Positions 4,272 through 35,208 are shown, numbered from the stretch's first letter. The stretch is 64,000 nucleotides of DNA from an uncultured Sphaerobacteraceae bacterium (GCA_964610045.1 CAZSUN010000006.1:528-64527); one strand, 5' to 3'. Notes: generated by a model from the letters alone, not told the origin. Numbers and translations are program-made.

Positions 4272-5690
4272 ATGCGCGAAATCGGAGCATGGATGGCAGC
4301 AATCGAGTCGAACCCTTCTGTTGGCAACCGGCTCGACAGTCCCGCCAAGCCGGCAGTCTCTCCTCGCTGGCGAACGTGGCTCCGACGTGGCTGGTCGTGG
4401 TTCCTCCGCGTGCTGTTGGTGATCCTCCTGCTGGCGTGGTGGTTCGTCCTCCGCATCGAGCAGCATGACAATTGGCCACCACCAGCCGACGCGGTGAGTG
4501 CCGCCCAGGCCCAGGCTGTGACCGAAGAGTTCATGGGGCAGGACGACGTCACCATCAACGATATCGCTATCCCTCTTGCGACATCGACTGCCGATTCCGT
4601 CGAATTCTTCTCGGATGGCCCGCAATTCTTTCCGAGAATGGCGGATGACATGTCCGCTGCCACATCGTCCATCCACATTCTTGTCTTCACCATCACACCG
4701 GGACAGGTGGCGGATCGCCTCGTCTCGATCCTCTCCGAGCGAGTGGCGGCAGGAGTCGAAGTCCGCGTCATCGTCGACCGCTATGGCGCCAAGGTGGACG
4801 GCAAGTCTCAACCGATTTTCGACGCACTGACTGCGGCGGGCGTGGAAGTCGTTGTCAACGACATCTTCCCACTCGACCGGGACGGACTCCTCGGTTCGGG
4901 TGGAATTGACCCCTGGCAGGATGAAGTGGGCAGTGCCGATCACCGGAAAATGCTTGTGATCGACGGGAAGATCGGCTGGATCGGCGGTGCTGGCTTCGAG
5001 GATCACTTCTACGATGGCCGCTATCACGACGCCTTTGTGCGAGTGACTGGCGATGTCGTGCGCCAGATGCAGCTGGTATTTTTCACGAGTTTCCACGCTT
5101 TGGGGGGGCCGACTCCCGCCAATGGGCTCGACCGATTCTTCACTGCCCCGGCTGTGCCGGGTACGATTCCGGCAACCGTTCTGCACAATGTGCCAGGCGG
5201 ATTCGTGCCGGGTACGCAAGCCATGGGTGAGATGATCGAGCAGGCGCAGGAGCGGCTCGACATCCTCAATCCGTATCTCGCCGATCCGGACATGATCGAC
5301 CGCATCATCGACGCCGGAAAGCGCGGAGTGTCGGTTCGGGTTGTGCTCCCGGGAAACTCGAACGTGACCCAGGCACGGGACGCCGCCGAACATAACTACC
5401 CCGCCCTGTTCGACGCGGGCGTCCAGATCTACGAGCATGAGACGATCATTCATTCCAAAGTGATCGTCGCCGACGACCGTGTCATCATCGGTACGATCAA
5501 TTTCGACTCATGGGCTCTATATCGCAACAACGAAATCGCCATCATGTTCGAGGATCCGGCAGTTGCTGACCAGGCAGAGCAGATCCTCATTGATGACGCT
5601 CTCGCGCGAGCCCAACCGGCTGAATTGCCGGAGGGGTTCTGGAATCGAGTGCAGAACTGGTTCTGGGACAAGCTGGTGTACTTCTTCTAG
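4272..5690 (+). CDS. cls: phospholipase D / cardiolipin synthase family protein
   Basis: Two HKD motifs ('HRKMLVIDGKIGWIGGAG' and 'IHSKVIVADDRVIIGTINFD') and an N-terminal TM ('WFLRVLLVILLLAWWFVL'). The start is uncertain: TTG 4242, ATG 4272 or ATG 4293. Confidence 0.8.
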   Translation: MREIGAWMAAIESNPSVGNRLDSPAKPAVSPRWRTWLRRGWSWFLRVLLVILLLAWWFVLRIEQHDNWPPPADAVSAAQAQAVTEEFMGQDDVTINDIAIPLATSTADSVEFFSDGPQFFPRMADDMSAATSSIHILVFTITPGQVADRLVSILSERVAAGVEVRVIVDRYGAKVDGKSQPIFDALTAAGVEVVVNDIFPLDRDGLLGSGGIDPWQDEVGSADHRKMLVIDGKIGWIGGAGFEDHFYDGRYHDAFVRVTGDVVRQMQLVFFTSFHALGGPTPANGLDRFFTAPAVPGTIPATVLHNVPGGFVPGTQAMGEMIEQAQERLDILNPYLADPDMIDRIIDAGKRGVSVRVVLPGNSNVTQARDAAEHNYPALFDAGVQIYEHETIIHSKVIVADDRVIIGTINFDSWALYRNNEIAIMFEDPAVADQAEQILIDDALARAQPAELPEGFWNRVQNWFWDKLVYFF

Positions 5691-7712: not shown

Positions 7713-8630
7713 ATGAGCGTCCTGCGCAAATCGGTCATTGCCGTCGCCGATAACCCGGCCGTCTCCCGCGCCTTCCACACAGAGGCTGTCAGGCGACGCC
7801 TGGTCGAACGGTTTGTTGCTGGAGAGTCGCTGGACAGCGCACTCACCGCGGCGCAAGGATTCAAGGGTGAAGGCATCACCACGACTCTTGACCTGCTTGG
7901 CGAAAACGTCACATCGGTCGAACAGGCCGAATCAGCCGTCTCGACATACCAGGCAATCCTGCTCGCGATGCAGGCGCAGGGACTCGACCCGAACATCTCG
8001 GTCAAATTGACCATGCTGGGACTCGATTTCGGTGAAGATGTCGCGCTGTCAAACATGAAGTCGATCCTGGCGTCGGCACAGGAAGCCAACGGATTTGTCC
8101 GGATCGACATGGAGGGTTCCGCCTACACCGATGTCACGATGCGCGTTTTCGAGCACCTCTACGCCAGGTACCCGAAGCAGGTCGGAATCGTGATCCAGGC
8201 ATACCTGCATCGAGCCGAGGCCGACATCGAACGCACGATCGAACTGGGGGCGCGTGTGCGATTGGTAAAGGGAGCCTATGCCGAGCCCCCTGAAGTCGCC
8301 ATCCAGGACAAATCGCAGATTGACGCGAACTTCGGCCGATTGGCTCAACGCCTCCTGAGCGATGGGAACTATCCAGCAATCGCCACGCATGATCTCGACC
8401 TCGTCCGATCAGCGATCGAGTACGCACGTGTTCGACAGGTCTCGCCTGAGCGGTATGAGTTCCAGATGCTGTACGGCGTACGAAGAGACCAGCAATCAGC
8501 ACTGGTTGACGACGGGTACCGCATGCGTGTCTACGTTCCATACGGGACCGAATGGTATCCGTACTTCACGAGAAGAATTGCGGAACGGCCAGCCAACGCA
8601 CTGTTCGTCCTGCGACAATTGCGTGGCTAA
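7713..8630 (+). CDS. proline dehydrogenase family protein
   Basis: 'VRIDMEGSAYTD', 'IVIQAYLHRAEADI', 'RLVKGAYAEP', 'IATHD' and 'FQMLYGVRRD...YVPYGTEWYPYFTRRIAERPAN' are ProDH (monofunctional PutA-like) signatures. Confidence 0.85.
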   Translation: MSVLRKSVIAVADNPAVSRAFHTEAVRRRLVERFVAGESLDSALTAAQGFKGEGITTTLDLLGENVTSVEQAESAVSTYQAILLAMQAQGLDPNISVKLTMLGLDFGEDVALSNMKSILASAQEANGFVRIDMEGSAYTDVTMRVFEHLYARYPKQVGIVIQAYLHRAEADIERTIELGARVRLVKGAYAEPPEVAIQDKSQIDANFGRLAQRLLSDGNYPAIATHDLDLVRSAIEYARVRQVSPERYEFQMLYGVRRDQQSALVDDGYRMRVYVPYGTEWYPYFTRRIAERPANALFVLRQLRG

Positions 8631-9184: not shown

Positions 9185-9390
9185 TGACCAATCAGTCAGA
9201 GCCAGAGGAAATGACGTTATGCCGTGAGCTGCTACCGTTGGATCGAGACGATCCGCGACTGCGGTTCGCTGCCGCCGTGCGCCCAATTCCTTCCAGAACC
9301 AGATCCCACCCCCTCGCAACCTGCATCCTGAACTGTCACCATGTCCGGAGTTCAACCTGTGATGTGGAGGTACGATCTGGAGGTGCTCCG

Positions 9391-9945
9391 ATGGTCCAAT
9401 CGTCGAACGAAGGTAGAGCACAACAGGAGAACCCGGCCAGCGGAACTGTTGAGCCAGGTGTGACCGGTCCCGTCTGGGACCTCATCCGGCGGCTGCCGAG
9501 GTACGCGAAAGTCGTGGCGTCGATGACCGTGGACGATCAGGTTCCACTCGCGGCGAAGGGGCTTCTCCTGGCTGCGGGTGCGTATCTCGTGTCCCCGGTT
9601 GACGCCATACCCGGTATCATTCCCATCGCTGGGCAACTCGACGACCTCTATGTCGTCCTGACAGGTTTGCAGTTGGCGGTGCGATTGTGCCCACCAGGAG
9701 TGGCCGACGGGCATTTCCGCTCGGTCGGTCTCGATCCAGCTATTGTTGACGACGATCTCGCCAGCATCCGCCGGTTCGTCAAGCGAGGAGTCACCTGGAC
9801 CCTTCAACGAGGGAGCGCCCTGTTTGCAGGTGCCTCCCGGCAGGTGACTTTGCTCGCAACCCGATTGGGACAACGAGGAGAAATACGCGATGACCAGGAA
9901 CCGTGGACCGAGAGACCGGCGACGCCGGAATCGGGATCGACCTGA
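9391..9945 (+). CDS. DUF1232 (YkvA-like) domain membrane protein
   Basis: 'LLLAAGAYLVSPVDAIPGIIPIAGQLDDLYVVL' matches the DUF1232 core as recalled. The ATG at 9391 is preceded by two GGAGG motifs. The upstream part of the track ORF (from 9175) is not protein-like. Confidence 0.65.
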   Translation: MVQSSNEGRAQQENPASGTVEPGVTGPVWDLIRRLPRYAKVVASMTVDDQVPLAAKGLLLAAGAYLVSPVDAIPGIIPIAGQLDDLYVVLTGLQLAVRLCPPGVADGHFRSVGLDPAIVDDDLASIRRFVKRGVTWTLQRGSALFAGASRQVTLLATRLGQRGEIRDDQEPWTERPATPESGST

Positions 9946-11807: not shown

Positions 11808-14800
11808 ATGGGCAGGTCTCGGGTGACTCGCGCGGCGGAAGGCAACGGAACGCGGCGACGTCGTGTCGCAGGATTGTCCAGGTTCCTGGTCATCCTGTTT
11901 GCCATCGTGTCGCTTGCTCCCGCGTTGGCGACCAATGTCTCTGCATCTCCGGAAGCATCGAACAATGGCCTTCCCGTGGCCTCCCAGGATGGAACATCAT
12001 CGCTGGAATTCGACGTGGTTCGCTGTCCCAACGACTACGATCCCAATGATCCTTTCGGTACCTGCACCGCTTTCGGGGTACCGAACGTGCCAGTACAGAT
12101 TACCTCGGTCGATCAGGCGCTGGCAGTCGACCTGACTGCTTCGACACAACAGGTGAGTGGCTCCGGTCCCGGGCGGGTTACATTCCAGGATCTGCCAGCC
12201 GGGGACTACCAGGTGACGGTAGGCTTGCCGCAGGAAGACGGCGTTCGGTACTCGATCTACTGTGGTATCGCGGGTGGCGGCACCCCCCTCCCGCCGACAC
12301 CTGACGATGCCTTGACGACGACTGTCAGTATCCCTGACGCCACGGCAGTTGCCTGCGACCTGTATATCGTCCCAACCGAGGTTCCCCAGTCCTCGATCGA
12401 TCTGTTTGCCTTCACCTGCGACGCCGGCTCGTTGCCGGAGAACGGTGACCGCGCGTTCGTCGATTTCGAAGATGCCTGTCCGACCGTTGCCGTCGCTGTG
12501 GAATTCAGTCTCTCCGAAAGCAACGGAACCAAGACCGTCCAGTCTACCGACGACACCGGCCGTACCCGTTTCGAGTTCGCGGCTGGCGCTTCGGTCAGGT
12601 TCTGGTCGGGAGTTCCGCTAGCGGCCGAAGAGTGGCTCTTCTGCTCGACAGGGCAGGGCGAGCCGCAGGAAATAGAGATCGACGAGCAAGGCGTTTCGAC
12701 CTTCGCCAACGACACCGCGATCGACCAGACATGCTCGTGGTATCTCGTCGAACAGCCAGAGGCGACGGAAGCGCCAACCGAGGAACCGTCTGCCACGGAG
12801 GAACCTGCGGCGACGGATGAGCCCACCGAAGCGCCTGTTGAGGGTGAATCCACGCTCGATCTGTTCGCCTATCTGTGTCCAGCCGGTGCGCTGGGCGATC
12901 CCGATGGCGCCGGATTCGGCGACTTCCAGTCCGCCTGCACCGACGTGTCCCCGGGCATTGAGTTTCACCTGAACACTGGCGACGAGTCACTGGTGCAGGC
13001 GACCGATGGCGATGGCCAGACGTCGTTCACATTCCAGCCAGGCAACCCGGTCGATTTCTACGCTGCCGTTCCGCTTGAGGCTGACGAGTACCTGTTCTGC
13101 AGCATCGACGATGGCGATGCTGCGCTTGTCGACATGGATGAGCAGGGTGTCGCGCATTTCGAAATCGAAACAGCCGTAGCGCGTACCTGTTCCTGGTTCC
13201 TCGTCGAGCAGGCAGCACAACCAACACTGGAGCCCACCGAAGAGCCGACGCTTGAACCCACCGAGCAGCCTGACGACGGCGCCGGACGTCCCGGAGCAGA
13301 ATTCGGCTGGATCACCGTCTCGCCTTCCGTGTGCCCGGTTGACTACACCGACGATCTCGTGTCGGTGGCGTTCGACGATCTCGTTGCGGATTGCGGCCTG
13401 TCTGCGGAGGGCATTTCGTTCACGTTCGGACTACCGGGTGGCGATTCGGTCGTCCGCGTCAGTGACGGATCGACTCCACTGGAGTTCGAGGATCTCAATC
13501 CCGGCACCTACACCCTCTACAGTTCAGTGCCCCTGGAAGCTGCCAGCGAGCGCCTCTTCTGCACGTCGGACGGCGGAAATCGCTACGAGAAGGAGTTCGA
13601 CAGCACGGGAGTGACCACGTTCAGCGATCTCCAAACCGAAACCATCGACTGCCAGTGGTTCGTGATCCCGACCAACCTGCGGGGCGACGAGACCGGCGGT
13701 TCGCTCGAAGTCCATCTCTCGCAATGTCCGGCTGGTTACGACGGCAGCACCCTGTTCGATGATTGTCACGGCAACGGACTCGACGGATACGACTTTACCC
13801 TGGAAGGCGAATCCGGCACGCAGTCCGGTTCGACCGAGGTGACCCAGGTTCCAGGGCCAGGCATCGTCAGTTTCACGAGTCTCACGCCGGATACCTACAC
13901 CTTGCGAGGAGGACCTCCCGGCGACTTCGGTACCGTCAAGCTCTTCTGCACGATCCAGCCCGACGGTAGCACGGCCGATTTCAGCCTTGACGGCGCGACG
14001 GCGACGGTCACCGTCGGCGAAAACCAGCACGTCCTCTGCGACTGGTATTTCATCCCGGATGAGCAGTCAGGGCAAACACCTACACCAACCGAGGAACCGC
14101 AACGTGCGGAAATACTGGTAACCCTCTTTGCCTGCCCCGCAACCACAAACGGCACCTACGGTGGAGCGACGCTGGACACACTTGCTGGCGACTGCACGGA
14201 GAAGGTGAATGACGTAACCTTCCGGCTCGGGCATCCGGACGAGGCTCCTTTGTCGGCAAAGACGGGGAGCTCGGGCGACGGCGCGGTCAGGTTCTACGAC
14301 CTCCTGCCTGGCGACCTGACCATGACGCCGTCCCTTCCGTCCAATCTCACCAGCCTGGCGGTGTTCTGCACGATCGACGATGGCGATCCTTACCAGAAAG
14401 CGCTGTCGAACGGCGGGACAACGTTCGTCGATGTCGATGGCGAGTCGATTGCCTGCAGCTGGTTCGCCGTGAAGGACCGCACCGAACCAGCGCCTTCTCC
14501 CACCGGGTCAATCACCATCCGCGAATACCTGTGCGACAAGGATCGCTCGGAAATCGTTGACTGGGACAAGGAATGCGTGGCCGGCGCCTCGGGAGCGTCG
14601 TTCACTCTGACTTCGGCGGCAACCGGCTCGTCGCAGACGGGAACCCCGAATACTCGTGGTGTGCATGTCTTTTCAGGACTCAGTGACGGCTATTACGCCC
14701 TGGTCCAGAACGAAGGAGCCTGGTGCCGTGCCGTCGCTGACCGCGTCGACGGAAAGAGCAGGGTTATCGTCAATGGCGGCGGCAATACCGATGTCGTGAT

Positions 14801-15044
14801 CTACCAGTGCGGTCCGGTTGAAGGGTTGCCAGTCACGGGAACAGGCACAACGATTCCGAACGATGGCATCGGAACCACCGGTGAGATCGGACGGAATGCT
14901 GCCATCGCCATGGGGATCGCCGCGCTCCCGATTGCGCTGCTGGGCACCTGGCGACGGCGACCTTTCTCTCGTTCCACCGCCGGATTGTCCCACCGGCAGC
15001 AGGGGGCTCAGGATAGTACCAGGATCCACAGGCGGTTCCGCTAG
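11808..15044 (+). CDS. secreted cell-wall-anchored protein: signal peptide, seven four-Cys repeat modules, LPVTG sorting signal
   Basis: The N-terminal signal is 'RFLVILFAIVSLAPALA'. LPVTG (nt 14826-14840) is followed by a hydrophobic stretch 'AAIAMGIAALPIALLG' and a basic tail 'WRRRPFSR..'. Modules contain 'G.V.F.DL.PG.Y.L'-type strands reminiscent of Cna-B/SpaA-like folds. Confidence 0.85.
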   Translation: MGRSRVTRAAEGNGTRRRRVAGLSRFLVILFAIVSLAPALATNVSASPEASNNGLPVASQDGTSSLEFDVVRCPNDYDPNDPFGTCTAFGVPNVPVQITSVDQALAVDLTASTQQVSGSGPGRVTFQDLPAGDYQVTVGLPQEDGVRYSIYCGIAGGGTPLPPTPDDALTTTVSIPDATAVACDLYIVPTEVPQSSIDLFAFTCDAGSLPENGDRAFVDFEDACPTVAVAVEFSLSESNGTKTVQSTDDTGRTRFEFAAGASVRFWSGVPLAAEEWLFCSTGQGEPQEIEIDEQGVSTFANDTAIDQTCSWYLVEQPEATEAPTEEPSATEEPAATDEPTEAPVEGESTLDLFAYLCPAGALGDPDGAGFGDFQSACTDVSPGIEFHLNTGDESLVQATDGDGQTSFTFQPGNPVDFYAAVPLEADEYLFCSIDDGDAALVDMDEQGVAHFEIETAVARTCSWFLVEQAAQPTLEPTEEPTLEPTEQPDDGAGRPGAEFGWITVSPSVCPVDYTDDLVSVAFDDLVADCGLSAEGISFTFGLPGGDSVVRVSDGSTPLEFEDLNPGTYTLYSSVPLEAASERLFCTSDGGNRYEKEFDSTGVTTFSDLQTETIDCQWFVIPTNLRGDETGGSLEVHLSQCPAGYDGSTLFDDCHGNGLDGYDFTLEGESGTQSGSTEVTQVPGPGIVSFTSLTPDTYTLRGGPPGDFGTVKLFCTIQPDGSTADFSLDGATATVTVGENQHVLCDWYFIPDEQSGQTPTPTEEPQRAEILVTLFACPATTNGTYGGATLDTLAGDCTEKVNDVTFRLGHPDEAPLSAKTGSSGDGAVRFYDLLPGDLTMTPSLPSNLTSLAVFCTIDDGDPYQKALSNGGTTFVDVDGESIACSWFAVKDRTEPAPSPTGSITIREYLCDKDRSEIVDWDKECVAGASGASFTLTSAATGSSQTGTPNTRGVHVFSGLSDGYYALVQNEGAWCRAVADRVDGKSRVIVNGGGNTDVVIYQCGPVEGLPVTGTGTTIPNDGIGTTGEIGRNAAIAMGIAALPIALLGTWRRRPFSRSTAGLSHRQQGAQDSTRIHRRFR
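11994..14810 (+). repeat. seven tandem ~100-130-aa protein-domain repeats (C..C..LFC..C-W pattern) with Pro/Thr/Glu linkers
   Basis: Module boundaries read from the sequence: 11994-12374, 12390-12755, 12849-13211, 13302-13670, 13698-14057, 14106-14474, 14508-14810. PTE-rich linkers lie at 12756-12848 and 13212-13301. Modules 2 and 3 are about 45% identical by hand alignment. Confidence 0.8.
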
Positions 15045-15209
15045 CGACTCGTGGTACAGTCGCGAATGGCGTGCTTCCGCCGCAAGGAGTGGCATCCGAT
15101 ACGCAGGCTCGCCACAGGCCCGCACTCGCCTTCGTGACGGATCAATCGCCTGGTATCGAGCGAGCAACATCCGACAGAATCGGTACATCGACACTGCCAG
15201 AGGGAGTTC

Positions 15210-16109
15210 ATGGCCTACCTATCACGCAGACGATTCCTTGGCCTGGTGGCTGGTATCGGCACCGGATTGGGCGTTGCCCGTCAAGCGGGTGCGATCAGCA
15301 CCTCGAACCTTCCCGAGTGGGGCGCGAGTGATGGCGCCACTGATCTCCAGGGCGGTCCGCTTGGACTCAATCTGGCGAGCGATCCCGGCCAGGTTCCGGT
15401 GGCGATCAGGATCCCGGACGCTGACGTTGACGCCGAAGTAGAAAAGCAGCAAATCGTCGACGGCCAGATGCTCGACCCGACCGGACCCTGGGTGGTGGCC
15501 TGGTACGAGCAGAGCGCCCGCGCCGGGGAAATTGGCAACATGCTCGGCTCCGGACACGTCGACTACTGGGGAGTCGGACCGTCCGTGTTCCGGAATGTCG
15601 CAGACCTCACTGAGGGAGCGCCGATCGAAGTCACGGGCAAGGGCGGTACGGTCTACACCTACGAAGTCGAATACGTCCGGCAAATCGAGCTCGCGACCGT
15701 CACCACGGAAGAGTTGAACTCGCCGGAGTTGGTTGGGCAGACCGATTACGCGGCGATCTCACTCATCACCTGCGGCGGAACGTTTGACTACGAGAATGGC
15801 GAGTACCTGTTCCGGGACCTGATCCGCGGGCGGCTCGTGTCTGCCTCCCGGCCGAGTGTGGAAAGTGGCGGCGAACCGGCGAACCAGGGACCGGATACCA
15901 GCGGCCAACAGGCGACGGTCAACACGGACAATGTCAACATGCGGTCCGCACCGTCGACCAGCGCCGAGGTGGTGCAGGTGCTCGCCAGCGGAACCGTCGT
16001 CACCATCACCGGCGATACCCAGGACGCCGATGGCTATACCTGGGCGCCGATCCAGCTTGAGGATTCGACCGCCGGCTGGATCGTAACCGACTTCCTGACA
16101 TCTGCCTGA
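15210..16109 (+). CDS. sortase (class E/F-like) with Tat-type N-terminus and C-terminal SH3b-like domain
   Basis: 'SRRRFLGLVAGIGTGLGVARQAGA' is Tat-like. His is in 'GSGHVDYW', the catalytic 'LITCGG' Cys is at nt 15771-15773, and a downstream Arg is in 'LIRGRLV'. The C-terminal 'VNTDNVNMRSAPSTSAEVVQVLASGTVVTITG...GYTWAPIQ...GWIVTDFL' is SH3_3-like (about 15906-16100). Confidence 0.85.
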   Translation: MAYLSRRRFLGLVAGIGTGLGVARQAGAISTSNLPEWGASDGATDLQGGPLGLNLASDPGQVPVAIRIPDADVDAEVEKQQIVDGQMLDPTGPWVVAWYEQSARAGEIGNMLGSGHVDYWGVGPSVFRNVADLTEGAPIEVTGKGGTVYTYEVEYVRQIELATVTTEELNSPELVGQTDYAAISLITCGGTFDYENGEYLFRDLIRGRLVSASRPSVESGGEPANQGPDTSGQQATVNTDNVNMRSAPSTSAEVVQVLASGTVVTITGDTQDADGYTWAPIQLEDSTAGWIVTDFLTSA

Positions 16110-16194
16110 TCGCGTCCAGTTCATTGACGGCTGGTTGGCTCCCGTGGATAATACCGACTGTTTTGGTCGGCTTTTCCACGGGAGTTCGAATTCC

Positions 16195-17226
16195 ATGGCA
16201 TGTCCTCCATCGCGTTCGCCCCTTTTGTCCATTGCACTCAACCGGCGCGCCGCTCTGGCTGGTGCAGCGATATCCGGTTCAACCTTGCTTGTGCCAGGTC
16301 ACGCGGCGGCGCGCCAGTCCACACCGGAATCGGGCTGGAGCTTCACCGACGACAAGGGTGTGACCGTCTCGCTCGATGCGATGCCGGCACGTGTTGCCGC
16401 CGACGTGAACGCCGCGGCACCCCTTTGGGACTTCGGGGTTCAGGCCCAGGCGGTGTTCGGGTGGAACGCGAGCGAATCCGGCGATTTCGGCGATGGCGGT
16501 GGCAACATCGACCCGGCAATGGTCGAAGTTGTTGGGGACATTTCCGAACCCATCAAGATCGAGCCGCTTGTGGCATTCGATCCTGACGTTGTCATAACCC
16601 TCACGTTCGTCCTCGACGACCCCGACGAGTACTGGAGCATCGACGCGGCGTTGGTCGACCAGGTTCGGGAGATCGCGCCGATCATCGCCATGTCGGGAAC
16701 AGGCAATGCGGCGGTCAATACGGAGCGCTTCGCCGAACTGGCAGCCGCACTCGGCGCTGATCTCGAAACCCCCGAATTGGTTGAGGCGCGGGAATTGTAC
16801 CTGGCAGCCACGGCCAATCTCGAAACCGTCGCGGCGGCATCATCGAACCTGACCATCCTGTTCGCCGGCATCGACGCCGAGGCGATGTATGTGGCCAATC
16901 CTCCCGACTGGCCAGACCTCAGCATGTACATGGAAATGGGCGTGAATGCAGTGATTCCGGATGCAGCGCCCGGCGACTACTGGGAATCGCTCAGCCTCGA
17001 GCAAGGTCTCAAGTACCCGGCCGACATCATCATGACCTCGACCAGGGGGGGATCGTGGCAGTTGGCGGACCTGGTCGACCACCCGGTCTTCAGTGCTCAT
17101 CCTGCCGTGAAGGCGGGTCAGGTGTACCCCTGGAACCAGGACTTCATCCAGAGTTACCAGGGCATGCGTGAAGCGATGGACCATCTCTCGGAGGTCCTCT
17201 CCGGATCCAGCGACATCGTGGAATGA
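16195..17226 (+). CDS. ABC transporter substrate-binding protein (type-II importer, siderophore/haem/B12 class), paralog 1
   Basis: Has a Tat-like 'LNRRAALAGAAISGSTLLVPGHAAA' and sits directly upstream of FecCD permeases. The ATG at 16195 follows GGGAG. The longer track start (16135) is unlikely. Confidence 0.8.
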   Translation: MACPPSRSPLLSIALNRRAALAGAAISGSTLLVPGHAAARQSTPESGWSFTDDKGVTVSLDAMPARVAADVNAAAPLWDFGVQAQAVFGWNASESGDFGDGGGNIDPAMVEVVGDISEPIKIEPLVAFDPDVVITLTFVLDDPDEYWSIDAALVDQVREIAPIIAMSGTGNAAVNTERFAELAAALGADLETPELVEARELYLAATANLETVAAASSNLTILFAGIDAEAMYVANPPDWPDLSMYMEMGVNAVIPDAAPGDYWESLSLEQGLKYPADIIMTSTRGGSWQLADLVDHPVFSAHPAVKAGQVYPWNQDFIQSYQGMREAMDHLSEVLSGSSDIVE

Positions 17227-17287
17227 GTTTTGCTCTCCGGACGTGTCGGATCGCACCCGCCTGCATGCACGAACAGAGGAGTTCGGG

Positions 17288-18298
17288 ATGAGTATTGGCT
17301 CACGAACGGTCAATCGACGTTGCCTGACGTTGGCAGCAGCAGGCGGCCTGCTGCTGGCAGGACGCGGAGCGCCTGGCGCAGCCAGCCAGGAGTCGTCGCC
17401 ATCGGCAGGCTGGAGCTTCACCGACGACCACGGCGTCACCGTGGAGCTTCCGGAGCTGCCCGCAAGAATTCTGGCGGATGTCAACGCGGCTGCTCCGCTC
17501 TGGGACTTCGGGATTCGTCCCCAGGGAGTCTTCGGCTGGAACGTATACGAGGACGGCACCTTCGGGGTTGCCGGCGGCAACGTCGATCCATCCCAGGTCA
17601 CGACCACCGGCAACGTTTCCGAGCCGTTCCAGCTCGAACCCGCGATCGCCTTCGACCCTGACCTGATCGTGACGATCACCTGGGCACCCGACGATCCGCT
17701 GGACTACTGGAGCATCGATGCGGACATCCTGCCCCAGGTGCAGGAGATCGCCCCAATAGCCGCGATCTCGGCGGTGGGCAGGGCAGACGTCAATACCCGC
17801 CGGTTCGCCGAACTCGCGTCGGCTCTGGGCGCCGATCTCACCGCGCCAGAACTCGTGGAAGCCAACTCCCGCTTTGAAACCGCCATCGAGGACCTGGCCG
17901 CCACGGCCTCGACACGCTCCGACCTCTCCGTCCTGTTCTTCTCCGCGGGGGCGGAAGGGTTGGTCGTGGCGAACCCACCCTACTGGGCCGATCTCAACTT
18001 CTACCTGGAGAGTGGGGTCAACGCCATCCTCCCCGATACCGCGCCGGGCACATTCTGGCAGGAGTTGAGCCTGGAACAGGCGCTGACCTATCCATCGGAC
18101 ATCATCATGGCCTCTGAGCGTCCGGGCTCCTTCCAATTGGCGGAATTGCAGGAGAATCCCGTCTACTCGCAGCATCCTGCTGTGAAGGCAGGTCAGGTTT
18201 ATGGGTGGAACCAGGACTTCATCATGAGTTACCAGGGTATGTCCGATGCCATCGAGCACCTGGTCGCGGTGCTCGATGGCGCTCAGAAGGCCACCTGA
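17288..18298 (+). CDS. ABC transporter substrate-binding protein, paralog 2
   Basis: 'VNRRCLTLAAAGGLLLAG' is the signal. It is collinear with paralog 1 ('GWSFTDD.GVTV', 'ADVNAAAPLWDFG', 'HPAVKAGQVY.WNQDFI.SYQGM'). AGAGGA lies upstream of the ATG at 17288. Confidence 0.8.
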   Translation: MSIGSRTVNRRCLTLAAAGGLLLAGRGAPGAASQESSPSAGWSFTDDHGVTVELPELPARILADVNAAAPLWDFGIRPQGVFGWNVYEDGTFGVAGGNVDPSQVTTTGNVSEPFQLEPAIAFDPDLIVTITWAPDDPLDYWSIDADILPQVQEIAPIAAISAVGRADVNTRRFAELASALGADLTAPELVEANSRFETAIEDLAATASTRSDLSVLFFSAGAEGLVVANPPYWADLNFYLESGVNAILPDTAPGTFWQELSLEQALTYPSDIIMASERPGSFQLAELQENPVYSQHPAVKAGQVYGWNQDFIMSYQGMSDAIEHLVAVLDGAQKAT

Positions 18299-18351
18299 CG
18301 CCGTGAGTCCAAACATCCACATCCACCGGCGAAGCGCTCGGCAGGACTGCC

Positions 18352-19407
18352 ATGGCACGCGTTGACGCCATCGAACCGATGATTGCCGCCGGTGGAACCC
18401 GCTGGTGGCAACTTCGACTGAGCAAGCTGGCAGGACTGATCCTGCTGCTGGCTGCAGCGGTGATCGTCTCGTTGCTGAGCCTGAGGTTCGGCTCACTCTC
18501 GATTTCAACGAAGAATGCCGTCGACGCCATCTTCAACTACAACCCCGATGTCTACGAGCAAACCATCGTCCGGGAACTGCGTGTACCGCGGACGCTTATC
18601 GCCCTGAGTGTCGGGGCGGGACTCGCCGTCGCGGGCACCGTGATGCAGGCGGTGACGCGAAATCCTCTGGCGGACCCTTCTATCCTGGGTGTCAGCCAGG
18701 GCGCGAGCCTGGCGGTCGCAATTTCCGTGACATATCTCGGTATGTCCAATCCCAACGAGTACGTCTGGATGTCGTTCGCTGGCGCATTGCTGGCGTCGCT
18801 CCTGGTGTTCATGGTGGGGAGCGCGGGTCACGGTGGCGCTTCCCCGGTCAAGCTCGCCCTGGCAGGGGTGGTGGTTTCCGCCATGCTCGGAGCCTGGAAC
18901 AGCACGATTCTGCTCATGAACGAAGACACGATGGATCGGGTCAGGTTCTGGTTGGCGGGTTCGGTTGCAGGCCGTGAGCTCGACACACTTTGGGCAGTCG
19001 CGCCGTTCCTGTTCCTGGGTACCGGCGCCTGCCTGCTCCTCGGTCACCAACTCAATGTTCTCAGTATGGGTGACGAAAGCGCTCGCGCGCTCGGCATGAA
19101 TACGACCCGGATACGCGTCACCGCTTCGCTGCTGGTGATTTTCATCACCGGAGCATCCGTTTCGGTCGCGGGTCCGATCGGGTTTGTCGGGCTGGCGACG
19201 CCTCATATGGTTCGTGCCGTGATTGGCCCGGACAATCGGTGGGTGCTGGTGTATTCGCTCGTGGTCGGCGCGATCCTGCTCACAGGGGCCGATGTTGCCG
19301 GTCGCATCGCCACCCGACCCTCGGAACTCCAGGTTGGTATCGTCACCGCGCTGGTTGGGGCGCCGTTCCTCGTGATGCTGGCTCGACGGACAAGGTTGGC
19401 GGACTAG
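18352..19407 (+). CDS. FecCD-family iron-siderophore/haem/B12 ABC permease
   Basis: 'LRVPRTLIALSVGAGLAVAGTVMQAVTRNPLADPSILGVSQGASL' is the FecCD signature. The protein is multi-TM. Confidence 0.9.
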   Translation: MARVDAIEPMIAAGGTRWWQLRLSKLAGLILLLAAAVIVSLLSLRFGSLSISTKNAVDAIFNYNPDVYEQTIVRELRVPRTLIALSVGAGLAVAGTVMQAVTRNPLADPSILGVSQGASLAVAISVTYLGMSNPNEYVWMSFAGALLASLLVFMVGSAGHGGASPVKLALAGVVVSAMLGAWNSTILLMNEDTMDRVRFWLAGSVAGRELDTLWAVAPFLFLGTGACLLLGHQLNVLSMGDESARALGMNTTRIRVTASLLVIFITGASVSVAGPIGFVGLATPHMVRAVIGPDNRWVLVYSLVVGAILLTGADVAGRIATRPSELQVGIVTALVGAPFLVMLARRTRLAD

Positions 19408-19408
19408 C

Positions 19409-20470
19409 GTGGCAGCAGTTACCGAAACCACCATCTTCACTTCACGACCGGGTCACCGGACCATTCGGTTCGGGTCCATTGCGGTGCGCGTCAACCTGCG
19501 CGCCATTGCGTTCTCAGTGATCGCCCTGGCAGTGCTGGCCCTGCTGATGATCTGGGCAATTACCCTTGGTGCGTTCTCGATCCCGTTTCCGGATGTCGTC
19601 AAGGCGTTGGCCGGCAACGGCACGGATGACACCGAAATGGTGGTGCGGACCCTGCGGCTGCCGCGTATTCTGGTCGCCGTGTTCTGTGGCGCGGCGCTGG
19701 CGATGTCCGGCGCGATCTTCCAGGGTATCTCCCGGAACCCGCTCGTTTCTCCCGACATCATCGGAATCGACTCGGGCGCCACGCTGTTCGCGCTGGTGGT
19801 CATGATCATCGGGGTCGGCGATGTCGGCGTACCCCTGGCGGCGTTCCTCGGTGCTGTCCTGACCGCGTTCACGATCTACTCGCTATCCTGGAAGAACGGC
19901 ATCTCCATGAACCGCCTGATCCTCGTCGGGATCGGGGTTGGGGCAGTGGTTGACGCCGGCTCGACCTACATGACCGTGAAATTTCCGATCGAGATCACGC
20001 GACCTGCAATCGTCTGGTCGATGGGGTCGTTCTATGCAGTCAATTGGGACGATGTCGTGTTGCTCGGCGGTGCTGTTGCGATTCTCGGGCCACTCGCAAT
20101 CATCCTGATGGAATCGCTGCGCACCATGCAACTCGGCGATATCGTCACCCGTAGCCTGGGTATCCGGCTTGAGCAGACACGCCTCTCCCTTATCGTGATC
20201 GGTTGCGCGCTGGCGGCCGTCTGCGTGTCCCTGGCGGGACCAATCGGGTTTGTCGCCCTGATCGTTCCGCATATGGCCAGGATGCTGCTGGGAGCCCCTT
20301 CGGCGAGTGTGCTCGTTTTCACGGCAATCCTGGGAGCAATTCTGATGCTGATATCCGATACTGTAGCTCAGCATTTGCTGCCGGTGACGCTGCCGGTCGG
20401 CGTGGTCACCGGAGCAGTCGGTGCACCGTACTTCCTGTTCCTGCTCTACCGCACCAACATCCGCTCGTAA
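19409..20470 (+). CDS. FecCD-family ABC permease (second subunit)
   Basis: 'LRLPRILVAVFCGAALAMSGAIFQGISRNPLVSPDIIGIDSGA'. The GTG start is 1 nt after the preceding stop. Confidence 0.9.
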   Translation: MAAVTETTIFTSRPGHRTIRFGSIAVRVNLRAIAFSVIALAVLALLMIWAITLGAFSIPFPDVVKALAGNGTDDTEMVVRTLRLPRILVAVFCGAALAMSGAIFQGISRNPLVSPDIIGIDSGATLFALVVMIIGVGDVGVPLAAFLGAVLTAFTIYSLSWKNGISMNRLILVGIGVGAVVDAGSTYMTVKFPIEITRPAIVWSMGSFYAVNWDDVVLLGGAVAILGPLAIILMESLRTMQLGDIVTRSLGIRLEQTRLSLIVIGCALAAVCVSLAGPIGFVALIVPHMARMLLGAPSASVLVFTAILGAILMLISDTVAQHLLPVTLPVGVVTGAVGAPYFLFLLYRTNIRS

Positions 20471-20490
20471 TCGAGGAGCCCGCAACGCCC

Positions 20491-22143
20491 ATGTTCCAGC
20501 TTCGCGCCGATGCTGTATCACTGGCCTACGATGCTCGTCCCGTCGTGCATGACTTCTCGCTCGACATCGAGGAAGGGAAAGTAACGACCATCATCGGGCC
20601 GAACGGGTGCGGCAAGTCCACCGTACTTCGGTCGATGGCTCGCCTGCTGCGTCCAACCAACGGTGCGGTCTACCTGGACGGCGCCGCGATTCACACCATG
20701 CCGTCCCGTGATGTCGCGAAACGGATCGGCCTCCTGTCGCAGACAGCCCAGGTGCCGGAAGGCGTAACCGTCGAGGATCTCGTCCATCGGGGCCGTTACC
20801 CGCACCAGGCGTTCCTCCAGCCGCCGTCCCGGCAGGACACGATCGCCGTCCACAAGGCCATCGATCTCGCTGGAATGGGCGATCTCCGCCTTCGCGCGGT
20901 CAACGAGCTCTCGGGAGGCCAGCGCCAGCGTGCCTGGATCGCGATGGCACTGGCCCAGGAGACGCCGATTCTTCTCCTCGACGAGCCAACAACCTACCTC
21001 GATCTCGCCCACCAACTCGAAGTCATGGAGCTGGTCGAACGACTCAATCGTGAAGAGGGCCGCACCATCGTGATGGTTCTGCACGACATCAACGAAGCCG
21101 CCAGGGTCAGCCACCGGATTGTGGCGATGCGGGAAGGCCGGATCATCGGCGACGGGTCCCCTGCGGAAGTCCTGACCCCGGAACTGCTCTCGCGATTGTT
21201 TGGTGTCGAGTGCGACGTTATCGCGACCGAATCGCAAGACCAGACCCGCGGGTACTGCATGCCACGCTCGATGGCTGGCTGCGAATGTCTCGAACGCAAG
21301 GGAACGAAACAGGGCTTTGAGATCGATCGGGTCGCCACCGGGTACGGGAAGTCGATCATTTCCAGCGATCTGTCCATGACGATCCCGGGTGGAAAGATCA
21401 CCGCCCTCGTCGGTCCGAACGCCTGCGGCAAGTCGACCCTGATGCGCACCTGCGCCAGGCTCCAGAAAATGGGAGCCGGCACGATTCACCTCGATGGTCG
21501 CAGCATTGGGTCAGGCTCGCACAAGGAACTGGCACGACGGCTCGCCTTGTTGAGCCAGGATCCGAGCGTGCCGGGTGACATCCTGGTTGAGGACCTCGTG
21601 CTCGCCGGGCGCAATCCCCATCAGGGATTCCTGCGCCGATGGTCTGCCGATGACGAAGCGATCGTCAACTGGGCGATCGAGACCTGCGGGATCGCCGAGT
21701 TCAGGTTCCGGCCACTTGGCTCATTGTCCGGTGGCCAGCGTCAACGGGCCTGGATCGCCATGTCACTGGTGCAGGACACGGACGTGCTTTTACTCGACGA
21801 ACCGACGACGTTCCTCGACATCGCCTCGCAGGTGTCCCTCCTCGATATCATCTGGAAGCTCAACCGGGAACAAGGGAAGACGGTGGTGATGGTTATTCAC
21901 GACATCAACCTTGCCGCCAGGTATGCCGACCACATCATCGCCATGCGCGATGGCAAGGTGATCGCCCAGGGAACGCCCACCACGGTCGTGACCTGCCCGC
22001 TGATGCGCATGATTTTCGATATCGAATCCGATGTGTTGCGACATCCCGAACTAGGTACACCGCTCATGATTCCGCTCCGGACAGCCAGCTCCGGGCAACT
22101 GCCACCGGCGATGGGTTCGCCGGTGGCAGTTGCTGCCGGCTAA
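20491..22143 (+). CDS. fused double ABC ATPase (two complete FecE/FepC-like cassettes in one polypeptide)
   Basis: Walker A occurs twice ('GPNGCGKST' at about 20596 and 'GPNACGKST' at about 21412). The signature 'LSGGQRQR' and Walker B 'LLLDEPT' each occur twice. The second cassette starts at about nt 21316. The ATG at 20491 follows GAGGAG. The track ORF (from 20203) runs through the permease gene. Confidence 0.9.
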   Translation: MFQLRADAVSLAYDARPVVHDFSLDIEEGKVTTIIGPNGCGKSTVLRSMARLLRPTNGAVYLDGAAIHTMPSRDVAKRIGLLSQTAQVPEGVTVEDLVHRGRYPHQAFLQPPSRQDTIAVHKAIDLAGMGDLRLRAVNELSGGQRQRAWIAMALAQETPILLLDEPTTYLDLAHQLEVMELVERLNREEGRTIVMVLHDINEAARVSHRIVAMREGRIIGDGSPAEVLTPELLSRLFGVECDVIATESQDQTRGYCMPRSMAGCECLERKGTKQGFEIDRVATGYGKSIISSDLSMTIPGGKITALVGPNACGKSTLMRTCARLQKMGAGTIHLDGRSIGSGSHKELARRLALLSQDPSVPGDILVEDLVLAGRNPHQGFLRRWSADDEAIVNWAIETCGIAEFRFRPLGSLSGGQRQRAWIAMSLVQDTDVLLLDEPTTFLDIASQVSLLDIIWKLNREQGKTVVMVIHDINLAARYADHIIAMRDGKVIAQGTPTTVVTCPLMRMIFDIESDVLRHPELGTPLMIPLRTASSGQLPPAMGSPVAVAAG

Positions 22144-23477
22144 GGCGTCAGACGCTGCATGTCGCGGGGAAAGAGCGTCGTCTCGCGGACATTCGCAATT
22201 CCGAGGAGCCGGGCGACGAACCGTTCCAAACCAAGTGCGAATCCACCATGCGGTGGCATGCCGTACCGAAATGCGTCGAGGTAGCCTTCGAACCCGGCTG
22301 TCTCGATCCCGCGCGAAGTGAGCGCAGCGAGATAGTCGTCATACCGGTGAAGTCGCTGACCGCCCGTGACGATCTCCAGTCCCCGGAAGAGGAGGTCGAA
22401 ACTGTTCGACCATGCCGGACGCGCCGGATCGGGATGGGTGTAGAATGGCCGCTTCGCCATCGGATAGCCCGTCACGAAAAGCCAGTCGGAACCATGCTCC
22501 CGAATCGCCCACTCACCCAACCATCGCTCGTGAGCCGGGGCGAGATCGGGTTCCTCCCGAACGTCCTCACCCGTCTGCCGGGAAATCATCTCGAGGGCGT
22601 CGGCGAAATGCACGTGAGGAATCCGGTGCGGAACCTCGGGGACTTCGAACCCTGGCAGCGACCGGTGCAGATCCAGTGCGGCAACGGTTCCGACCATTCC
22701 GGCGATGGCCGTTCGCACCATGCCCATCACCGTGAAGTGATCATCGATAAACCCCATCTCGGCGTCGAGTGACTGGTACTGGCTCAGGTGCCGGACGGTG
22801 TCGTGCGGTTCAGCCCGGAACGCCGGTGCCGTTTCGAAGACTCGTTCGAGCGCACCCACCATGATCTGCTTGTAGAGTTGGGGGCTTTGGGCGAGGAATG
22901 CCGGTCGCCCGAAGTAATCAAGCTCGAAGACATTCGCACCACCTTCCGGCGTGGTGCCGATGATCTTGGGTGTCGAGATTTCGACGAACCGCTCTGCCCG
23001 GAGTGAGGATCGGAATCCCTGGACTGAGGCTGCGGCGATCTGCTGGACGGCTGCCCTGGCCGGGTGTCGGAGAGAGACGGCCGCCACGTCGAGCTGGGTT
23101 GGTAGCTGGGCTGTGAGGTGAGGCCGGAATATCTCGATCGGCGGCTCTGTCACCGGCTCGGAGATGACCTCGAGGCCCATCGCTTGAACTTCGACCCCTT
23201 CGGGTGCCTGCGGTTTGACAACGACCGTCCCTGTGAGTGACAGCACCGTTTCGTGCGGCAAGGACTCGATGATCGCCCGCATGGCGGAATCATCGACGAC
23301 AACCTGGGCGATTCCGGACGCATCGCGAAGGAGGAGAAAGCAGACGGCTTTCAACGCCCTGCGGTGGTGGAGCCAGCCCTTGAGCGTGACGGTGTTACCG
23401 GGAAGACCGGAAAGCTCTGACGCCCAGGTTCGTTCAGCCTGGGCCACTCCGAGGAAGGGAAGAAGCGGTGTGGTCAC
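22140..23477 (-). CDS. aspS: aspartate--tRNA ligase (type 2, archaeal/non-discriminating-like)
   Basis: Contains 'FRAEPHDTVRHLSQYQSLDAEM' and 'GGQRLHRYDDY...YGMPPHGGFALGLERFV'. The GTG at 23477 (VTTPLLP..) is preceded by GGAGG. The 59 extra codons of the track ORF are the T-box leader. Confidence 0.9.
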   Translation of the reverse strand: MTTPLLPFLGVAQAERTWASELSGLPGNTVTLKGWLHHRRALKAVCFLLLRDASGIAQVVVDDSAMRAIIESLPHETVLSLTGTVVVKPQAPEGVEVQAMGLEVISEPVTEPPIEIFRPHLTAQLPTQLDVAAVSLRHPARAAVQQIAAASVQGFRSSLRAERFVEISTPKIIGTTPEGGANVFELDYFGRPAFLAQSPQLYKQIMVGALERVFETAPAFRAEPHDTVRHLSQYQSLDAEMGFIDDHFTVMGMVRTAIAGMVGTVAALDLHRSLPGFEVPEVPHRIPHVHFADALEMISRQTGEDVREEPDLAPAHERWLGEWAIREHGSDWLFVTGYPMAKRPFYTHPDPARPAWSNSFDLLFRGLEIVTGGQRLHRYDDYLAALTSRGIETAGFEGYLDAFRYGMPPHGGFALGLERFVARLLGIANVRETTLFPRDMQRLTP

Positions 23478-23753
23478 GGTGTGGCCTCCATTGATGGGGA
23501 ACACAACGCCCCCACCGTCTTGCGGACGAGGGGGGCTTCCCGTGGTACCACCGCGTTTCGCCGGGTTTATGTACCCAGCCTTCGGAGCCCGGTATCGGGG
23601 GCTGGCCGCCTCGGCCTTCGCAGCCACCGATGGATGGCTGGTTCTGCCGGGCACTCGGGAGGGTCTTCACCGGTCGATCTTGTCCGCGCTTGCACCGTGC
23701 CGCGGCTCGCTGTGCTCGATCGGATCCGGGTACTCGTCTCCGTCACCGTGTTG
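23478..23753 (-). promoter_or_regulatory. T-box riboswitch leader, Asp specifier (GAC)
   Basis: On the minus-strand RNA, Stem I has 'GAGACGAGUA', an AG bulge 'AGCGAG' and a distal loop 'GGUGCAA'. The specifier loop 'UGAA-GAC-C' places GAC at 23665-23663. The T-box core is 'GCGGUGGUACCACGGG' (about 23557-23539). The terminator is GCCCCCCUCGUC-CGCAA-GACGGUGGGGGC followed by GUUGUGUU (23536-23500). Confidence 0.8.
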
Positions 23754-33266: not shown

Positions 33267-33284
33267 GCGCACAATCGAAGATAT

Positions 33285-33570
33285 CATCGGCGTTGATCGG
33301 AACGAGTAGGCATCGGAACACGATTGGAAGCGAACCGGGGGAGGTGGAAGCCCGGTGGATCGTGGATGCTGAATGGATCCGGGAGTCTTGCCCCGAAACA
33401 CCCTGTGTGGAGTAGACGGCAACGGTGTCTCCCCCGTTACCGGGAGCCTCGTATCGGAAATCCACGTGATTTCCCGTACGGTTTGAGTGGACAGCGGCAA
33501 CGCTGTCAATGAGGGTGGCACCGCGGTACGGCATCGAGCCTCCGTCCCTTGTGGGATCGGAGGTTTTTTG
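33285..33570 (+). promoter_or_regulatory. T-box riboswitch leader, Trp specifier (UGG)
   Basis: Stem I has 'UGAUCGGAACGAGUA', an AG bulge 'AGCGAA' and a distal loop 'GGUGGAA'. The specifier 'UGAA-UGG-A' places UGG at 33374-33376. The T-box core is 'GAGGGUGGCACCGCGG' (33511-33526). The terminator is CCUCCGUCCC-UUGU-GGGAUCGGAGG followed by UUUUUU (33539-33569). Confidence 0.85.
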
Positions 33571-33609
33571 ATGCCGTTTTTGCGTGGCATCCACGAAGGT
33601 GAGGATTAC

Positions 33610-35208
33610 ATGGTGGCACAGGTTGAGCACAGGACAAACCGGGCCAGGCATGGCATCAGTCCGGGTATCGACGAGGTTCGTGACATTGCCAGGACGTCCG
33701 AACCATCCACAAGGATGATTCCGATCCATCGCGAGATCCTGGCCGATCTCGAAACCCCCGTTTCGGTCTATCTCAAGGTCAGTGATGGATGCCGGAAACC
33801 CGGATTCATCCTCGAATCAGTCGAGGGTGGGGTCCGGATCGCCCGCTACTCGTTTATCGGCGCCAGCCCAATGGCGACGGCAACCTTGCGGGACGGCACG
33901 ATCTCGATCCAGGGACGTTCAGGCCTCCAGGAAGCCAACTACGACGATCCGCTCACAGCGCTTGGCGAACTCATGCGCGAGTATGGTGCGGAGCGGCACC
34001 CGCACCTGCCGCGAATGACTGGAGGGGCCGTCGGCTACCTCTCGTACGATGCGATTTCGAAGTTCGAACCGCGGGTTCCTCTCGCCAAGGGTGCGGGTCT
34101 GGGGTATCCGGAAGCACAGTTTCACATTGCCGACACCCTGGTGGTGTTCGACCATATAGACCGCGTGATGAAGGTTGTCTCCCACGTCCGGTTGCACGAC
34201 GGCGATGACCTCGAGACTGCATACGATGAGGCCGTCTCCCGGATTGATGCCCTCACCGAGATCCTGAAATCGGAGCCGACTTCCTATCCCATACGAGCGA
34301 ACCGCCATGACGCTCCCGTGGTCGACCGGTTCCGGCCGAACACCAGCCCCGAGCGGTACCGCGACATCGTCAACCGGGCCAAGCAGTACATCCATGAAGG
34401 GGACATCTTCCAGGTTGTCCTCTCGCAACGGGTCGACATAGATACCGATGCCCATCCATTCACGATCTATCGTGCATTGAGAATGGTCAATCCTTCGCCG
34501 TACATGTTCTTCCTCGACTTCGGCGAACACCAGGTCGTGGGGGCGTCGCCGGAACTTCTCGTCAGGCTCGAAGATGGAGTCGTGACCAATCACCCGATCG
34601 CTGGGACCAGGCCACGGGGCGAGTCTGCCCAGGAAGACGAGCAACTTGCGATCGACCTGCTGGCGGACGAAAAGGAGCGGGCAGAACACCTGATGCTCGT
34701 GGACCTGGGACGCAACGACGTCGGCCGGGTTTCGAAACCCGGGTCCGTGCGCGTTCCCAAACTCATGGAAATCGAGCGCTTCTCCCATGTCATGCACATC
34801 GTCAGCCACGTCGAAGGCAATATCGCCGATGGCTACGACGGTTTGAGTGCGCTGCGGGCATGTTTCCCGGCGGGCACCGTGTCCGGCGCACCCAAGATCA
34901 GGGCGATGGAAATCATTGCCGAACTTGAGACTGACAAGCGAGGAGTCTACTCCGGCGCCGTCGGCTACCTCGACTTTGCCGGAGGCATGGATACGTGCAT
35001 TGCCCTCCGCACGATGGTGGTGAAGGACGGCGTCGCCTCGCTGCAAGCCGGAGGGGGGATCGTCGCCGACAGTTCACCGGAAGGTGAGTTCGCCGAGAGC
35101 TTTCACAAGATGCGTGCGCTGGTCCGGGCGATCGAGCGGGCAGAGAACATCGAAGCGTCCAGCCCTGGCGAACAGAACGGAGCGGATCATGATCTTCCTC
35201 CTGGATAA
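33610..35208 (+). CDS. trpE: anthranilate synthase component I
   Basis: '[10 protein letters not shown]', 'IFQVVLSQR', 'NPSPYMFF', 'GAVGYL' and '[11 protein letters not shown]'. The ATG at 33610 follows GAAGGTGAGG. The track ORF from 33487 reads through the T-box terminator. Confidence 0.9.

Follow-up and report, generated by a model that had tools for sequence, protein, structure and literature searches.

An LPXTG-terminated four-cysteine repeat protein beside a probable siderophore importer in a Chloroflexota-like genome: evidence for two juxtaposed units

The seven-gene block

The stretch of DNA analyzed here, 64,000 nucleotides (nt) from an uncultured Sphaerobacteraceae bacterium and called the window below, carries at positions 11808-22143 seven open reading frames (ORFs), all on the + strand. 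They encode a large surface protein built of four-cysteine modules, a sortase with an SH3b domain, two substrate-binding proteins (SBP1 and SBP2), two permeases and a fused double ATPase. An original prediction, made from the DNA alone, had described these genes as one surface capture and uptake system of the kind known from haem acquisition loci. Its structural statements are reproduced in full: all seven ORFs are present, the intergenic gaps are, in order, 165, 85, 61, 53, 1 and 20 nt, and the gene identities it gave are correct, with Pfam and NCBIfam returning a sortase, two Peripla_BP_2 proteins, two FecCD proteins and a double ABC_tran protein. These family matches are strong, well above chance. 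The reading of the block as a single system is another matter. We conclude, with a probability of about 0.8, that it is two independent functional units made neighbours by one insertion: the surface protein with its sortase (unit A), and a type-II ATP-binding cassette (ABC) importer (unit B). The features are as follows, with lysS included as a synteny anchor and lengths in amino acids (aa).

11808-15044, + strand: surface protein, gene 1 of unit A; 1078 aa, predicted to be secreted and sortase-anchored, with signal peptide, seven four-Cys modules and sorting signal
11994-14828, + strand: span of the seven modules, aa 63-190, 194-316, 347-468, 499-622, 630-751, 766-890 and 899-1007
14826-14840, + strand: LPVTG sortase recognition motif, aa 1007-1011
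15210-16109, + strand: sortase-SH3, gene 2 of unit A; Pfam Sortase 4.6e-15, SH3_3 2.5e-12
16124-16152, + strand: promoter-like site TTGACG-17-GATAAT, from a consensus scan; 5' border of the importer
16150-16174, no strand assigned: candidate operator palindrome AATACCGACTGTTTTGGTCGGCTTT, overlapping the -10 hexamer; IscR type-1 match 20/25
16195-17226, + strand: SBP1, unit B; Pfam Peripla_BP_2; twin-arginine translocation (Tat) signal, no lipobox
17288-18298, + strand: SBP2, unit B; Pfam Peripla_BP_2; paralogue of SBP1
18352-19407, + strand: permease 1, unit B; Pfam FecCD 6.5e-97
19409-20470, + strand: permease 2, unit B; Pfam FecCD 1.9e-85
20491-22143, + strand: fused double ATPase, unit B; 550 aa, two Pfam ABC_tran stretches
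22140-23654, - strand: lysS, convergent lysyl-tRNA synthetase; Pfam tRNA-synt_2 and anticodon OB domain; outside both units

Gene neighbourhoods of the pair and of the importer

Contexts of surface-protein orthologues were collected by exact look-up, by a genome-contig search and by a metagenome search with alignment, and all window proteins were then compared by tblastn with all collected loci. The genome-contig search with the single surface protein gave one locus, L004; the metagenome alignment search was far richer. The pair of surface protein and sortase-SH3 is found in about 27 related Chloroflexota/Thermomicrobiales loci, and its members are adjacent in every locus having downstream DNA. 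The convergent lysS follows directly after the sortase gene in 15 loci (L001-L006, L012, L013, L015, L018, L019, L022 and L026-L028), where the LacI and sugar ABC genes of the window often come next, and 7 further pair loci have other neighbours, none of them iron-related. The pair occurs without the importer in 22 related loci in total.

Only four loci have FecCD/ATPase or binding-protein genes in the interval from the sortase gene to lysS: the window, L010, L036 (GCA_035629695.1, with the same junction sequence as L010) and L037. This count leaves out the closest sortase relatives P0297 (84% identity, 4.5-kb contig), P0298 (77%, 4.0-kb contig) and P0305 (69%). P0305 and the binding-protein homologue P0083 probably share one 3442-bp contig. 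In a neighbor-joining tree of the sortases, drawn without support values, the adjacency loci form one clade nested in the lysS-adjacent lineages. A single insertion in the common ancestor of the four loci is the most parsimonious account of these sequences. Conservation of the seven-gene order in relatives, proposed as a check on the original prediction, does not reach beyond this nested clade. A foreign composition of the importer region was considered and rejected, G+C being flat at 0.62-0.63.

Even within the clade the gene content varies, with two binding-protein genes in the window, none in L010 and L036, and at least one in L037, whose contig ends there. In the close relatives L010 (4315-4668) and L036 (1404-1754), the sortase gene is still followed by the promoter/operator and by genes for both permeases and the fused ATPase. 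Remnants of a binding-protein gene were sought in the L010 spacer of about 270 nt, where blastx and blastn gave only the shared promoter/operator and short chance matches. The transporter of these two loci probably relies on binding proteins whose genes lie elsewhere behind the same operator, a situation that parallels the stand-alone binding proteins of actinomycetes (PMC5812494).

The importer, for its part, also occurs away from the pair. An importer of the same architecture stands by itself in L008, where its neighbours are copCD and transposases, and in L034/35, where it is surrounded by housekeeping genes. L007 and L031 have orphan binding-protein genes on contigs that also carry the pair, at a distance from it of about 350 kb in L007 and more than 150 kb in L031.

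These distributions bear directly on the proposal that a ferric siderophore, haem, B12 or a metal is bound at the cell surface by the anchored four-Cys protein and then handed on to the binding proteins and FecCD permeases, in a NEAT-free analogue of the Isd, Shr and Hta systems. The tight spacing of seven genes on one strand, and the retention of the adjacency in L010, L036 and L037, are what such a relay would lead one to expect. The separate occurrence of pair and importer argues the other way, as does the fact that L010 and L036 retain the permeases beside the sortase with no binding-protein genes there, and any such coupling would be confined to the adjacency subclade. Surface-protein identity within the importer-linked clade is 60-63%, by which measure its conservation is no higher than relatedness predicts.

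The original prediction was to be considered refuted if its modules belonged to a known adhesin or pilin family and occurred with the importer in this genome only. An adhesin/pilin-type fold was found, as described below; co-occurrence is nearly but not literally limited to this genome, with about three to four close relatives having the adjacency.

Promoter and candidate operator between the units

The 85-nt gap between the sortase and SBP1 genes contains the promoter-like site, overlapped by the palindrome AATACCGACTGTTTTGGTCGGCTTT. The promoter-like site is kept in 5 aligned loci and is seen in further loci. The consensus block, TTGACx-17-xATAAT plus CCGACT-N5-AGTCGG, lies upstream of members of the importer family at about 7 independent sites, where the identical L010/L036 junction is counted once and L031-33 are counted once. 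Promoter and palindrome accompany an adjacent sortase gene in L010/L036 and L037, and are equally kept before stand-alone importers or orphan binding proteins in L007, L008, L009, L031-33 and L034. The sites of the block in relatives are these.

L007, about 9800-9855
L008, about 9745-9798
L009, block present
L010, about 4340-4393
L031, about 7900-7954
L034, about 7890-7945
L036, about 1425-1480
L037, about 9295-9350

Because the block recurs both with and without the sortase gene, it belongs to the importer family and not to the sortase pair. An importer that carries its own conserved promoter and operator is a further point against capture and relay.

Against the Escherichia coli IscR type-1 consensus ATASYYGACTRWWWYAGTCRRSTAT, quoted in PMC3899308, the palindrome matches at 20 of 25 positions in the window and at 17-22 of 25 at the homologous sites. 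It is the single best match to that consensus on both strands of the 64 kb, the runner-up scoring 18/25. The likeness lies in a GACT-N5-AGTC core that overlaps a promoter (PMC3899308), whereas the candidate site of the window precedes siderophore uptake genes and not isc or suf. A DtxR/IdeR or Fur box at the junction was considered and rejected, the palindrome resembling IscR type 1 and being unlike those consensuses. In L031, a gene of the Rrf2 family is found two genes away from the orphan binding-protein gene. The conserved motif suggests a candidate Rrf2-type iron or Fe-S regulon in Thermomicrobiales.

The same gap raises the question of a coupling in regulation only, in which the two units would be mechanistically independent while read-through of the pair transcript adds basal expression of the importer, or control is partly shared in the clade. 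In favour of it, all the genes are on one strand, and the 85 nt hold no terminator-like hairpin with a T-run. Yet the conserved promoter/operator sits in that very gap and moves with the importer in other contexts, and a 6-bp hairpin, though also lacking a T-run, comes right after the surface-protein stop codon (15044-15063). We regard this coupling as unlikely.

The surface protein and its modules

The surface protein contains 28 Cys, four in each of seven modules, in the pattern C-x13-20-C-x50-66-C-x28-31-C, and the four-Cys repeat claimed for it is thus real. Modules are about 110-128 aa long, and a hidden Markov model (HMM) made from the window's own modules finds 7 domains in the protein. 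Linkers rich in Pro, Thr and Glu, up to about 30 aa long, separate modules 2 to 6; the remaining junctions are a few residues each. Behind LPVTG come about 20 aa of spacer, then a hydrophobic segment, then a basic tail of about 33 aa; both spacer and tail are longer than typical. Signal peptide, LPXTG motif, hydrophobic segment and basic tail, the parts expected of an LPXTG wall protein, can all be recognized in the translation.

The 24 orthologues have invariant Cys and L-P-x-T-G in common. Across 18 orthologues, L1007, P1008, T1010 and G1011 are invariant, as are the Cys of modules 4-7; in the N-terminal modules the Cys are also conserved, though with exceptions in alignment A1. Module 5 (aa 630-751, window 13695-14060) also has His residues beside Cys that are invariant in the 18 orthologues (H636, C640, C653-H654). 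These could form a metal site or be purely structural. H636 and H654 could conceivably ligate metal in the capture of a ligand by the surface protein.

Domain scans of the block proteins found Sortase/SH3_3, Peripla_BP_2, FecCD and ABC_tran, and a weak signal for SdrD_B and SpaA over the whole surface protein. The whole-protein Pfam scores are 40.5 bits for SdrD_B (cut-off 29.7) and 38.9 for SpaA (cut-off 23.1), with no single stretch passing alone; individual modules match at E <= 0.01 in 8 of 35 cases for SdrD_B and 6 of 35 for SpaA. Pfam scans of the whole surface protein and 35 modules gave no match to NEAT or HtaA at E <= 0.01, which bears out the remark that nothing NEAT-like was visible. 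A sequence search of the PDB with the whole surface protein gave nothing even at E <= 1.

Module 4 was modelled with AlphaFold2 from an alignment of 35 module sequences; the model has a mean predicted local distance difference test (pLDDT) score of 95.7 and a predicted template modelling (pTM) score of 0.88. The fold is an all-beta sandwich in which a single short helix lies between the first and second Cys. The best Foldseek matches are the Gram-positive major pilins Spy0128, BcpA, PitB and SpaA, the B domains of SdrD and UafA, and CnaB2, with probability about 0.9-1.0, E 5e-3 to 0.1, template modelling (TM) scores of 0.4-0.55 and identity below 20%; Foldseek against the PDB is the sole source of the fold assignment. 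By this model the module is a divergent stalk domain of the CnaB/prealbumin-like kind. It resembles CnaB, SdrD-B and SpaA domains in being a tandem beta-sandwich with an LPXTG end and a sortase partner. It differs in its four conserved Cys, in the helix-containing insertion between the first two, and in a host that belongs with Chloroflexota and not Firmicutes or Actinobacteria. The four Cys of each module are likely to be paired in two disulfides, which would replace the isopeptide bonds usual in the CnaB fold; their positions relative to the predicted secondary structure suggest the pairs C1-C2 and C3-C4. Neither Pfam nor the module fold model gave a distinct head or ligand-binding domain in the surface protein, and a stalk fold with no such head is hard to reconcile with capture of a ligand.

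The module family is large. In a search of 1.84 billion proteins, the module profile matched 10,660 cluster representatives with an E-value of 1e-3 or lower, of which 611 reach 1e-30 or lower. Of the 149 best-ranked representatives, 79 contain three or more full-length modules of exactly four Cys each, and 24 end in LPxTG. Six of the seven long members scanned that lack LPxTG have a sortase domain fused at the C-terminus (P0190, P0219, P0228, P0233, P0269 and P0292). A module gene of 1402 aa with a C-terminal sortase is also found near the pair in L005 (21706-23282, - strand). The combination of repeat array and sortase in a single polypeptide is an unusual arrangement.

The adjacent sortase

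The sortase begins with a twin-arginine signal or anchor (SRRRFLG), continues with the catalytic domain and ends in an SH3b domain. Across 114 homologues, conservation of H116, C188, R202 and R206 is 97% or higher. With a Pfam Sortase domain, the conserved His-Cys-Arg and a gene adjacent to that of the surface protein in all loci examined, it has the features of a cognate sortase. Among NCBIfam models, class_F_sortase NF033748 scores best, at 83 bits, below its cut-off of 166; class E follows with 30.8 bits, and no class C match is listed in the scan. Class-F-like is the most that can be said from these scores. The enzyme shares with the class F sortases of Actinobacteria the catalytic His, Cys and Arg and an LPXTG substrate motif, but departs from them in its score (83 against 166 bits), its C-terminal SH3b domain and its twin-arginine N-terminus.

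Two details of the sortase genes may be added. A second sortase paralogue lies directly behind the first in L001 (14532-15182) and L024 (2945-5402), the L001 copy being without SH3. In the window, a hairpin GCGACT-N8-AGTCGC at 15044-15063 begins at the last base of the surface-protein stop codon; it has a 6-bp stem and no T-run, and might lower expression of the sortase relative to its substrate.

Fold and sortase together bear on whether the surface protein is a pilin-type subunit, polymerized by the adjacent sortase into a fibre, and not a single wall-anchored protein. Major pilins (Spy0128, BcpA, PitB, SpaA) are among the best structural matches, and relatives in the module family are fused to sortase domains. 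However, the pair has a single sortase gene whose product is class-F-like first and class-E-like second, with no class C match listed, and separate genes for tip or base pilins are not present. Polymerization of this kind seems to us distinctly unlikely.

The importer

Peripla_BP_2, FecCD and ABC ATPase proteins occur together in unit B, and all five proteins have Pfam matches, as in a type-II importer. SBP1 and SBP2 are 60% identical; FhuBGC of Bacillus is likewise said to serve two binding proteins. Both carry twin-arginine motifs (NRRAAL in SBP1, NRRCLTL in SBP2), and neither has a lipobox Cys. One possibility for their attachment in a single-membrane cell is an uncleaved signal anchor.

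The best solved relative of SBP1 is DesE of Streptomyces coelicolor (2x4l/6enk), with E 1.4e-41. The sole other match in the PDB sequence search at E <= 0.01 is another siderophore binding protein, and no haem binder was matched at that threshold. DesE handles ferrioxamines and other hydroxamates (PMC5812494). For permease 1 the top NCBIfam models are of the Fe(3+)-siderophore/FhuB/FecC type, both permeases scoring below equivalog cut-offs; the ATPase exceeds the equivalog cut-offs of FecE and FepC, but its score is inflated by its two domains. Homology thus makes a ferric siderophore of the hydroxamate/ferrioxamine class the most likely substrate. Gram-positive bacteria recognize the siderophore primarily through the PBP2-type binding protein itself (PMC13293324), and uptake of this type needs no surface receptor (PMC13293324), which speaks against a capturing role for the surface protein.

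In common with DesE/CdtB uptake in Streptomyces, the importer has a DesE-homologous binding protein and several binding proteins per transporter, and further binding-protein genes stand alone at other places in the genome with an operator in common (PMC5812494, PMC13293324). In contrast, the binding proteins of the window have Tat signals and no lipobox, the ATPase domains are fused, and the candidate operator is IscR type-1-like and not a DmdR1/IdeR or Fur iron box.

The ATPase has its two nucleotide-binding domains in one chain and is not a homodimer of a single domain. Fused ATPases are also encoded in L008 (576 aa), L034 (547 aa) and L036 (550 aa).

A proposed reading as two juxtaposed units

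The pair occurs without the importer in most loci, the importer occurs alone elsewhere, and it has its own promoter/operator; these findings do not support the reading of the block as one system. The DesE-like binding proteins and the CnaB-type stalk module likewise speak against the single Isd-like capture-and-uptake system that had been proposed. Gene content, conservation patterns, the fold model and motif conservation are what the analysis shows; anchoring, ligand class, regulator and repression are the parts that we infer in the following account. The surface protein would be exported, and the sortase, held at the membrane and wall, would cleave LPVT|G and join it to peptidoglycan. The SH3b domain of the sortase would serve in wall binding, and the anchored protein would form a rigid surface fibril or adhesin. 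Unit B (16124-22143) would act as a type-II ABC importer composed of two Tat-exported DesE-like binding proteins, a FecCD heterodimer and the fused double ATPase. It would probably be transcribed from its own sigma-70-like promoter, whose -10 region an Fe-S-sensing regulator of the Rrf2 type would block, giving repression when iron or Fe-S status is adequate. Its insertion between the sortase gene and lysS would have taken place in the ancestor of the small subclade and been inherited since.

Several observations weigh against this account or parts of it. The adjacency is retained in at least three to four related genomes or metagenomes, which is compatible with some selective benefit. No terminator-like site, that is, a hairpin with a T-run, was found between the sortase and SBP1 genes, so that transcripts may read through from one into the other. 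The promoter is only promoter-like, having been recognized by its consensus in a phylum for which little is known of promoters. The palindrome is a candidate Rrf2/IscR-type operator by resemblance of motif only, and no Rrf2 gene was found in the window. The ligand class leans on homology to DesE at moderate identity.

The Isd, Shr and HtaA haem loci of Firmicutes and Corynebacteria place a sortase substrate and a sortase beside an importer of the Peripla_BP_2/FecCD/ABC-ATPase type. The window has the same layout of substrate, sortase and type-II importer on one strand, but is without a NEAT or HtaA match at E <= 0.01, and its SBP1 is DesE-like and not of the haem-binding kind (IsdE/HmuT-like). 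Its linkage is confined to one small clade, and its importer has a promoter/operator in common with stand-alone copies. If borne out, the original proposal would have meant a new surface iron-capture system in a poorly studied phylum. The lack of a terminator-like site between the sortase and SBP1 genes favours it, yet all the comparative and structural tests able to support it came out negative, and we consider capture and relay very improbable. Still less probable, in our estimate, is a version limited to the clade of the window, L010, L036 and L037, in which the anchored protein has taken on the task of gathering ferric siderophores or iron at the wall for the DesE-like binding proteins; if true, this would be a NEAT-independent, sortase-linked capture step in Chloroflexota. 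Read-through coupling and a pilus-like polymer are both compatible with the conclusion that two units are present.

On the comparative evidence the block is a chance juxtaposition inherited in one clade, and it ought not to be annotated as one system. Unit A adds a divergent new member to the LPXTG/CnaB-type surface proteins, this one in Chloroflexota. Unit B appears, from its homologies, to be a new type-II ferric-siderophore importer, whose minor peculiarities are an ATPase with fused domains, binding proteins that are Tat-exported but not lipoproteins, and an IscR-like operator. The conserved pair of LPXTG protein and SH3b sortase, drawn from a large and poorly annotated four-Cys CnaB-like family, bears on how the Chloroflexota envelope is built. 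This is of modest value, as are the candidate Rrf2/IscR-type operator, as a mark of a siderophore-uptake regulon in Thermomicrobiales, and the finding of type-II importers whose double ATPases are fused and whose orphan binding proteins are dispersed. The interest that remains lies in the pair of SH3b sortase and four-Cys protein, the sortase-fused relatives and the candidate Rrf2 operator.

Flanking genes and host

A CYTH gene flanks the block upstream. Downstream come, in this order, the convergent lysS, a LacI regulator gene and the genes of a sugar ABC system. The stop codons of the ATPase gene (+ strand) and lysS (- strand) overlap by 4 nt (22140-22143), so that the importer has no spacer at its 3' border.

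The nearest homologues come from metagenome-assembled genomes named Chloroflexia, Chloroflexota or Thermomicrobiales. Together with the twin-arginine motifs and a T-box, they agree with the Chloroflexota-like, Tat-using and T-box-using host that had been suggested. The T-box leader is at 33284-33552 on the + strand (Rfam 97.3 bits, gathering score 93), ahead of a long ORF at 33487-35208.

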